37,561 nucleotides of DNA from Macrostomum lignano. Taxonomy: Eukaryota. Location of the stretch: contig NIVC01001055.1 in the NCBI GenBank assembly GCA_002269645.1, forward strand, positions 1-37,561, read 5' to 3'. The position numbers were made by a program, and so were the translations under genes. Position 1 is the stretch's first letter. Each line of letters opens with the position of its first letter. The notes under the pieces were generated by a model. That model saw nothing but the letters and a program-made list of their open reading frames with translations, was not told the DNA's origin and did no database searches. Positions 8,501 through 11,500 of the stretch are shown here, one piece after another.

Positions 8501-11500
8501 CTGAAAAAAGTGGCGAGTTCATCGTTATGTTGCGGTAGGCACAAGGTCTCGTTACCACCATAGATACTCGTTAATGTGCATTGAGCGTGAAGGAAAACTC
8601 TGAAGAGCAGAACAAAATTAGACAAAAAATCAAGACATATTGGCCTGTCAAAGTTGAGATAATGTCACTGACAATTGCTTTTAAAAGCACCTCAAATGGC
8701 ACCACAAGTAGCCAAGTTGACAATCGAAAAGCTCGATCGATGATAACGCGAATTTCCAGAGGTGGATGTACAGGCTCAAGCTGTGCAGTGAACTGTGTGA
8801 ACAAGCGTGGTACCTGTGGTTTAGGCTACTGGTTTATTCTGGTTTTCTATTATTACTTCTGTTATTATGTACTCTAATTTGGTAGGTTGCTGCCACCAGA
8901 CTAATGTCCCTTATAATAATAGTTTTAGATTAAAATAAGTGAGACAAGAGTCGACTTCATGGAAGATTATTGGAATAAACAAACAAAAGAAAATGATATT
9001 ATTGAACCAAATATGCAAAGATTTAAGCACTATTATTACTATGTTATTAGAACCGGTAGACTCCTGGTTCCTTTCCCTTACTTCTATCTAACTGACTGTA
9101 CTAATTCCTATTCTCGGTAGACTCCGTTTTGACTAAGCGGTAGACTCCTCTTAGCCTCCCTATTTTACCCCGATCTTACCTTTTATACTTTCTTATATAT
9201 ATTCTTTTATTTTATAAAGGGGAGACTCCCTTAGTCTGGCTTATTTGAGACTTAGATCTCTTACAAATGTTGTCCAATGGACGGTCCTGAACAGGATGCT
9301 TTTCCCGAGGCCAAACAGCCTTTTACTAATAGAGAAACCCGCTAAGACTCGAATTCCCATAGTTTCAGATATTTTCCCGAAGGTGAACTACTAATAGTAG
9401 CGTAAAAGCAAAACTGCTTATTCTCGAATTCATGCTACTAAAATAATTCATCCCGACGAATGGCAAACGCCTTAGCAAAACTGCTTGAAACTAAACCCCC
9501 TACTACACTTACCCCCCACTAAAAAAAAATGTGCAAACCCCTTTGCATATTTAGTTATTGTCGGGTTTATTTCAAGTAATTCAGACAGTATTAATAGTGG
9601 CATGCATGGACTAAATATAAGCAATATAATGAGCATGATTAAGCAATAATAATAACTGAGTAGTGGTAGCATAGCATAGTATGGAACATAGTATGATTAA
9701 TTAGTAATATACGGTATAGGTAATAATAATAGCATACTATCAGCAAAAGTAATAAACAGTACGAGTACATGATTAATGAAAGTAAACGACGATAATTAAG
9801 CCATACAATATTAGTTGAGCAATAGTATGTGAGCATTGAACAGTAATAATTGAGCATAATGGGATTAATGAAATAGGCAATGACCATATAGGTTTCTTTC
9901 CTGAATATTATCGATATGTAAAGATATATATAAGGCCAAGAAGCGGTGCAATAATTTTAGAAAAAGAAAAGAAAAAAAATGGCACTATGGCACTGTTTAA
10001 AATGCAGACAACATAGAAAAGAAAAGTTAAAGCTGTGTGGTTGTGTAATAATAACAAAAAAAAATTAGCAGCAATGGAAGCGTTAATCCCTGGGTTATTA
10101 AATTTTCAACTCAAAGATTCCCTAGGGGTCGGCAGGTTGGCGCCCTCTGCGCACACTGGTAAAGCAGGCCGGTTGCTGGCGTTTTCTTGCCTTCCGGGTC
10201 AAATAATTCTGCCAGGTCGCGTAGATGTTCACTCACCTGGTACGGTGATATTGGTCCTTTCGCCCGTTCCTCTGCATGCTGCAACGCATAGGTGCAGGCC
10301 ACCTCTAAGCTCTGGATGCGCTGCGCCGCCGTAGCCTTAGCGAGAAATCGTGTGCAGGCCGCTTGCACTGTCGGATCGTACCGGCCCGTGTTGCCGGTTT
10401 GCAGCAACCACCTTTTCAGGGCCTTGGTGCACTTCCGGAACTTCCTTGGACTGGCGCCGGAAGGTTCGGTCGCTGCGTCTTGGTTGCTCGGCGGTGGTAC
10501 GTCGTCTCGAAATAGTCCGGCGACATCCAAGGGAGGCTCATCCGCCACCGGAGCCGGCTTATGCTCTTGGACATCATTGCTTGGTGGTTCCTCTGCCACT
10601 GGTGCCTCATTGGCAGGGCTCAAGGCCTCTTCAATATCGGGCAGACTAACGTCTAGCAACATTCGTAAAAACTCATCGTGCTCTTCTCTTCTCTCTTCTT
10701 CCTGCTTCCTTGCCTCGGCTTCCAGATCTGCGCCTCCCAGATCTATTATTAATCTACCTTCGCCTTCTTCTTCCTTCGTAATCGGTTCTTCCCGTGGATG
10801 GGGTTTCTCGGGCTCGTCAGCCGTTTCTATCACCCTTACTGAGCGCACTCTCGGGGGTTCATTTTCGTCTGAATCATGTCTCCTTTTTTCGGAATAAATC
10901 TTTTTAATAGGATAAATGCGCTCCGGGGCATCAGCCATAATGCTATTCGAGCTGGAAGAGTAGATAGGGGTTAAACAACTCCTTTACTCTCTGTACGTAG
11001 CTCTTCTGGCCTGGGTCTATCGCTAATCTACTCGGCTCCCGTCTATTTCTAACTGGTCTATTTTCGACTACTGGCTGTTCGTTATTTTGTACTGGCATAT
11101 CTTGCACTGGTATATCCTGCACTGGCATAACCTGCACTGGCACTGGAACATTATTTTGAATTTGCACTGGCACAAACTGCACTTCATCTTCATGTTCACT
11201 CTCACTGTCGGCTGCTTCGTACATCGGATTAAGCGGTACATTTTCTCGAAGTTTCGGTCGCCTGGCACAACTGCTTTCTGGCTTTTCTTCCTCACTAACG
11301 TAATCGGCTGTTGGTACGGGTAGTAAATTATCCCTATGCATGACTAATTCCTCTTTTCTAGCCTTAGTACTTTTGTTTAATAATCTAATCCTGTAAACTA
11401 CTTCTGATAACTGTTCTATGACCTCGTAGACTGCTCTTCTCTTCCTGTGGAACTTGTTGGCTTCTGTCTGTGTGATGACTGGGTTGTTAATGAAAACTAA

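Follow-up and report, generated by a model that had tools for sequence, protein, structure and literature searches.

A conserved third open reading frame in the envelope position of a Macrostomum lignano Gypsy retrotransposon appears to be a non-envelope gene exchanged as a cassette

Mobile elements and viruses encode fast-diverging nuclear regulators such as VANC, the anti-silencing protein of the VANDAL transposons of Arabidopsis, HIV Rev and Tas of foamy virus, and Ty1 p22 is an example of copy-number control. The third open reading frame (ORF3) described here, from a Gypsy element of Macrostomum lignano, compares with VANC, Rev and Tas by functional analogy only, and no sequence or fold link to them was found. 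Non-envelope ORFs in the envelope slot of LTR elements are themselves an already known kind. In the C. elegans element Cer1 such an ORF, CERV, is expressed by splicing, is nuclear and is needed for export (PMC10309623). CERV is described there as a protein of 517 aa with exons in common with gag, and its domains are a Cys-loop M domain and a Rossmann-type G domain, whereas the ORF3 proteins have 240-285 aa, their own ATG and one all-helical domain; the comparison is one of descriptions rather than sequences, and the function of CERV has been shown whereas that of ORF3 is predicted. The ORF3s of bdelloid rotifer LTR elements are, like the present one, family-specific, modular, located in the envelope slot and described as expressed through splicing (PMC5408684). 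The rotifer proteins, however, are either enzymes that were captured (GDSL, DEDDy) or TM/coiled-coil proteins, whereas the M. lignano ORF3 has no family match and exists in deep alleles inside a single pol lineage. Plant aORFs are comparable in being additional ORFs that are conserved in most copies of a family and whose role is unknown, but the sense ones are described as env-like with TM domains and the others as antisense (PMC7264820); ORF3 is sense, TM-less and part of an animal element. The env genes of errantiviruses (insect Gypsy; F-type and gB-type, PMC13524379) resemble ORF3 in position and in the acceptor just upstream; unlike them, ORF3 lacks a signal peptide, a TM anchor and a fusion fold, and its size does not match. 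By the comparisons made, ORF3 belongs to none of the CERV, rotifer and plant groups. Titles and abstract openings, with subscription papers and theses lying outside the search, contained no such ORF3 family or allele-swapping cassette, and a paper on Macrostomum LTR elements (PMC12801592; text and supplements, figures aside) mentions no third ORF and contains neither of two short element motifs.

The window, a stretch of 37,561 nt of M. lignano DNA (contig NIVC01001055.1), carries the LTR element around ORF3 on its minus strand at 8798-17485. It is a Ty3/Gypsy LTR retrotransposon with LTRs, a target-site duplication, a primer binding site (PBS), a polypurine tract (PPT), gag and a pol in RT-RH-IN order (Table 1), and it is young. 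The PBS is of a sequence that we take to resemble the 3' end of tRNA-Leu. The pol frame of this copy is interrupted inside RT near 13930, so that the element is not fully intact; several other copies have pol in one frame. A canonical triple heat-shock element was looked for in the LTR and not found. Members of the family are nested in one another (L106, L107 and several others), with the insertion in the tail of pol, shortly before ORF3. L106 and L107 were considered as LTR-ORF3-LTR mini-elements and rejected, because the upstream LTR has no PBS and marks them as nested insertions.

The element is inserted in an intron of a host GH31 alpha-glucosidase gene, on the same strand. This gene occupies 8039-27599 of the window (minus strand), and its introns also house a DDE_3 element (17648-19495, with 264-nt inverted repeats) and an element at about 25258-27114 with long GC-rich inverted repeats and an ORF for a PARP catalytic domain (26083-26622; PF00644, E 4e-17). 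An in-frame stretch upstream of the PARP ORF has what we take to be a resemblance to a Myb/MADF helix bundle, and the element is possibly a mobile PARP. In one contig of run X1 the Gypsy insertion is missing. Exons of adenylosuccinate synthetase (PF00709) lie amid tandem repeats at 1250-3558.

Table 1. Features of the Gypsy element and of its third ORF, in window coordinates.
Feature	Position	Strand	Basis
5' LTR, 710 bp	16776..17485	-	2 mismatches vs 3' LTR; TG..CA ends
3' LTR, 710 bp	8798..9507	-	LTR comparison
Target-site duplication TGTG	8794..8797, second copy 17486-17489	.	sequence
Primer binding site	16764..16773	-	immediately follows 5' LTR in every full copy examined
gag, 336 aa, one CCHC knuckle	15339..16349	-	Pfam PF03732, PF00098
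Predicted -1 slippery heptamer, gag/pol overlap	15381..15387	-	identical heptamer in 5/5 other copies checked; frame relation
pol (PR region-RT-RH-IN)	10943..15393	-	Pfam RVT_1, RT_RNaseH, Integrase_H2C2, rve; frame map
Splice acceptor over last pol codons	10952..10981	-	conserved in all subfamilies; best of 860 AGs; homologous site used
ORF3, 275 aa, putative non-envelope accessory gene	10111..10938	-	ORF call, genome matches, alignment, pN/pS
Conserved N-terminal motifs (MADAP..Y..K.IY, basic cluster, ENEPP)	10852..10938	-	alignment A1; ENE[PQ]P in 13/13
SIM-like strand LIIDL (residues 63-67), acidic context	10738..10752	-	L.[VI][DAN][LIV] in 13/13
Predicted acidic amphipathic helix, residues 69-96	10651..10734	-	AlphaFold pLDDT 72-91 (residues 71-100); conserved E/F positions
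C-terminal helical domain, residues 159-275, modelled as five helices	10114..10464	-	pLDDT 85.7, pTM 0.79; fold searches
AT-rich 3' UTR, second half of swappable cassette	9521..10110	-	identity profiles
Polypurine tract	9508..9520	-	sequence

The original prediction placed an intact third ORF of 275 aa in the envelope position after pol, followed by an AT-rich 3' UTR of about 600 nt, and both are present as described. The ORF3 ATG lies 4 nt past the pol stop at 10943. A genome search with ORF3 gave 107 matches, and a full-length frame (240-285 aa) was found at 27 of the 57 distinct genomic places fetched. Identity to the window protein in the alignment of family members ranges from 34 to 97%. 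Between subfamilies pS is 0.64-0.97 and pN 0.11-0.54 in most pairs, with synonymous sites near saturation. The 107 genome matches and a pN far below pS argue that the ORF is more than a chance frame. Between the window copy and L007 dN/dS is 0.08 in the N-half and 0.05 in the C-domain; for the closely related copies L009 and L010 the N-half value is 1.83, which rests on very few changes. Indels preserve the frame and are located in the disordered half of the protein. Judged by these comparisons across copies, ORF3 is a real gene, conserved in the family and under purifying selection, and the doubt that it might be an unconserved frame falls away. A 193-aa antisense ORF at 10316-10897 was rejected as a gene because its open length varies, going down to 107-201 aa across 23 alleles, and because selection acts on the sense frame.

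The absence of a signal peptide, a TM segment and a furin-type site had been noted from the window copy, and hydropathy together with an RxK/RR scan agrees. The best 19-residue Kyte-Doolittle mean is 0.57 in the window protein and at most 0.65 in all 13 representatives, in which the best 8-residue hydropathy within the first 30 residues is at most 0.6, and the window protein has no RxK/RR site. None of 18 members matches an env or fusion family in Pfam at E<=1. The envelope position and an env-like expression via splicing, from a usable acceptor at the end of pol, would suit a divergent envelope, fusogen or particle component, but these absences and the small soluble helical domain make such a protein very unlikely.

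In AlphaFold models the N-half is disordered save for one long helix (residues 69-96), and residues ~164-268 form a C-domain of five helices, in keeping with the disordered half and helical C-terminal domain that had been foreseen. The basic NLS-like patches of the original prediction held up in part. A basic cluster, K[KR]x[KR], is found in the N-half of 12 of the 13 window-family representatives, the window copy being the one without, but RKFRKCTK opens the basic first helix of the folded C-domain and is not a free NLS. Alignment A2 contains only one invariant Cys. There is no Pfam match to a chromodomain, and the modelled fold is all-helical, not beta-sheet plus helix. For a J-domain, no DnaJ profile match was obtained in alignments A1, A3 and A4, and A2 has no HPD motif. 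The best Z of a wide structural search was 5.8 (cullin repeats, myosin cargo domains), no better than unrelated bundles and, as regards the J-domain fold, within the range of common helical arrangements. Foldseek against PDB and viral structures returned nothing at E<=0.001; these negative fold searches on the C-domain do not establish a new fold. Homology searches outside the genome with the single protein, with alignment A1 and with an alignment of type-B proteins (see below) against longer proteins found nothing usable; the best E against PDB sequences was 0.11, and the best score of an Atlas search, 0.79, is at chance level. A library of 1.84 billion gave eight matches to ORF3. Two fell outside the domain scan, and the six scanned were rejected as artefacts: five repeat proteins (three WD40, one DUF7507/DUF11, one zf-BED) and one long protein with a weak SMN YG-box match only. 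ORF3 thus appears to match no known protein family and, as modelled, no solved or viral fold. The family is as unrecognisable as first stated, with no env, chromodomain or other Pfam match, and its conservation, selection and lack of membrane features support a candidate accessory protein rather than an envelope.

Beyond that prediction lie a splice acceptor, the clade-wide occurrence of ORFs of this kind and a hypervariable cassette. The acceptor consists of a branch-point-like TTTAAC (10975-10970), a pyrimidine tract and an AG at 10953-10952, with a predicted exon start at 10951, and it takes the top place in the element by a simple score. The TTTAAC and the pyrimidine tract are kept in all subfamilies, as is a YAG whose last base lies 13-18 nt ahead of the ORF3 ATG. 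In one contig of run X2 (depth 4; one of four runs compared with L057), 257 foreign bases are joined exactly at the acceptor. This foreign exon lies 808 nt upstream of an ORF3 copy without pol, and because it ends in AG/GTAAGG the skipped part is a GT-AG intron. The 30-mer searched has four genomic matches, none of which is joined directly to ORF3. The acceptor is usable by the spliceosome. The donor of the spliced contig belongs to an unrelated repeat, not to the element, and conservation of the candidate donors in U5 and the leader does not extend to every copy. Contigs of four runs compared with the window element contain no leader-to-acceptor joint, although contigs are no proof that the joint is absent and would probably miss a short trans-spliced leader; several other contigs cross the acceptor unspliced. 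A search of sequencing runs for ORF3 found none with ORF3 on record as RNA. Stop-restart translation or trans-splicing of ORF3 is possible.

At L051/L052 (G000:C2657, C382) an intact ORF3 without gag-pol has kept its acceptor and is spliced to the exon of the unrelated repeat. It is possibly a host-expressed or captured copy; its dN/dS of ~0.2 against L012 may predate capture. The repeat that supplies the donor (L052:4763-5999, L095, L096, L097) also borders a fragment of ORF3 at L097, an independent second locus, and its opposite strand carries what we take, by motif, to be a USP-like peptidase fragment.

Forty loci were fetched around integrase matches, 39 of them from sister families at ~56-60% identity. 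At 28 of the 40 the downstream frame encodes a disordered Pro/Arg-rich half followed by a helical-type domain of ~100 aa, and at the remaining loci it is broken, interrupted or cut. These frames fall into two further types, B and C, beside type A of the window family. Each of the three types has a support of 97-99 in an integrase tree built by a quick method from copies of the one genome only, and Mag-like integrases (27-28% identity) fall outside. In type B the pol frame often runs into ORF3 without a stop, and most have a YAG 7 nt upstream of the Met of ORF3; in type C ORF3 begins ~400 nt past the pol stop. At L111-L115, L120, L121, L125, L129-L131, L145 and L150 ORF3 continues the pol frame, which yields polyproteins with 500-620 aa past the integrase core. 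The domain may therefore also be made as part of Pol in sister families. The leaders of L116, L122 and L141 contain several repeated PBS-like motifs. HHalign of type A against type B gives a probability of 2.3% (P 0.02) and exceeds every one of 40 column shuffles, and the other two type pairs remain below 1% and not above their nulls. Position, layout and a shared pol-tail motif suggest that the three ORF3 types are homologous, with weak profile scores, and an ORF3 of shared layout is, as far as these frames indicate, clade-wide in this Gypsy clade. Since the homology between the types is weak, the motifs of type B may not transfer to the window protein.

Short motifs persist in the fast-diverging disordered halves; their patterns were picked after the sequences had been viewed, and the counts are not independent because the members are related. 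The LIIDL of the window protein fits the layout of a SIM, with a hydrophobic core, acidic flanks and a disordered region, and SUMO binding is predicted from this motif. VIDLT is the core of the PIAS SIM (PMC3901395). The form xIDLT occurs in 11 of 16 type-B proteins and in none of 13 in the window family, and no SIM match is found in the four type-C proteins. Binding of LC8 to TQT motifs brings about dimerisation of the Panoramix silencing complex (PMC7861614). An LC8-type [TIVCA]Q[TS][DES] is present in 9 of 16 type-B proteins (2.0 expected), and TQT is absent from all 13 of the window family. A complex prediction for residues 49-105 with host SUMO scored 0.01, which speaks neither for nor against binding. 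The SIM, LC8-type and basic motifs point to a nuclear adaptor, and with its conserved basic clusters and SIM-like motifs the ORF3 protein is predicted to be a nuclear accessory factor.

The diversity of ORF3 is concentrated in a sharply bounded segment. L057 matches the window element at 93-100% identity between bases 151 and 6300, through LTR, gag and pol, and at 98-99% along most of the 3' LTR, but at only 51-76% across ORF3 and the UTR; four other reference elements have an equally sharp-edged drop. Among 18 pairs, chosen for having different alleles, the integrase is 99-100% identical (pS 0.009-0.216) and ORF3 42-80% (pS 0.43-0.82), and in one of them, L132/L139, the N-half alone differs. 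An unselected count gives three C-domain alleles at 14 places with one pol-tail type and five at 18 places with another. At the DNA level RT (~13000-14350) is 92-98% identical between the two main groups and other regions 63-91%; the RT module appears to have undergone a recent sweep or exchange between these groups. Recombination is common throughout the family, RT being 95-98% identical between two groups with differences of 15-30% in other regions, and ORF3 with the 3' UTR constitutes a sharp-edged cassette swapped among near-identical elements in several lineages. Alleles much older than the backbones that carry them have thus been maintained, and purifying selection acts on each. The simplest reading of such deep alleles is balancing selection, though repeated gag-pol sweeps with recombination at the junctions could leave them without selection for ORF3 diversity.

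The best explanation, advanced tentatively, is that ORF3 encodes a nuclear adaptor, likely made from a spliced subgenomic mRNA, that probably counters host SUMO-linked silencing, and that it is a selected gene exchanged as a cassette. The element's own donor, or a trans-spliced leader, would feed the ORF3 acceptor, and the basic clusters would carry the protein into the nucleus. There the SIM-like strand and the acidic helix would bind host chromatin or silencing proteins, and the helical domain would dock on element chromatin or RNA, or on a host factor. Rare alleles would escape host counter-measures, so that frequency-dependent selection would keep old alleles, and template switching at the conserved acceptor and the PPT/LTR ends would move these onto new backbones. 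Counter-silencing is ranked first because the diversity is conflict-like and has no fixed cis partner. Against it count the apparent confinement of this diversity to the cassette and the non-canonical SIM-like strand of the window family, with neither the VIDLT form nor TQT in its 13 representatives.

C-domain and UTR alleles mostly travel together, as they might if ORF3 were a Rev- or CERV-like export factor, an early product of spliced mRNA that binds the unspliced genomic RNA and exports it from the nucleus. One UTR type, however, is combined with three different C-domain alleles, and two of these combinations are found in recombinant copies that are intact (L010, L015), which argues against a strict protein-RNA lock and key. 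A strong acceptor within the genomic RNA would pose the same export problem that Rev and CERV solve, and Cer1 is a precedent for a spliced, nuclear product of the envelope slot that is needed for export, as is its polyprotein for the many type-B families with ORF3 in the pol frame. Arg-rich (Arg/Lys) runs are found in 13 of 16 type-B proteins (4.0 expected). A leucine-rich NES-like pattern is present in the window protein, but in only 5 of 13 of the family (1.1 expected) and at varying positions. The Cys-loop and the Rossmann-type domain of CERV are missing from the all-helical model, and export alone does not account for the allele diversity, which leaves this reading, the main rival, unlikely.

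A Tas- or Tax-like transactivator, binding the element's own LTR and activating through the acidic helix, is improbable in that the same ORF3 allele occurs with LTRs only ~75% identical (window vs L062/L063), the same LTR occurs with different alleles (window vs L057), and no DNA-binding fold is matched. Its attraction lies in the size of the protein, the place before the 3' LTR, the acidic amphipathic helix and the basic helix with which the C-domain begins; types A and C share an APLR motif and an acidic helix of the form [DE]F[LMI]xx[LF]L. Many deep alleles on one backbone are directly predicted, via negative frequency dependence, by a self-restriction or immunity factor, with which an allele would inhibit same-cassette elements and let rare cassettes spread as a form of copy-number control. 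ORF3 copies without adjacent pol do exist, one duplicated locus being intact and spliced to a foreign promoter exon. There is nonetheless only a slim chance that ORF3 acts in this manner, given that no cis determinant strictly follows the allele, that the protein does not resemble Gag or capsid and that purifying selection in active lineages is easier explained by a benefit to the element.

The alleles are not locked to one LTR or UTR type, which suggests that their diversity is driven by the host and not by a cis partner, and returns the argument to counter-silencing. In a broader form of that reading, possible but doubtful, the ORF3 proteins of the whole clade would be previously undescribed nuclear counter-defence proteins whose SUMO and LC8 motifs jam or mimic co-transcriptional silencing and whose alleles form an old, balanced pool of cassettes. 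ORF3 is invisible to domain-based annotation, and CERV is the one worked-out case found in the literature searched of a counter-silencing or export factor that an animal LTR retrotransposon encodes itself. The present family is a candidate that extends across a clade and combines a small domain modelled with confidence, short motifs open to testing and a natural series of alleles on near-identical backbones. Synonymous saturation beside an integrase of 99% identity points strongly, in evolutionary terms, to conflict and, if the broader reading is true, the cassette pool would resemble a resistance-gene locus inside a retrotransposon.
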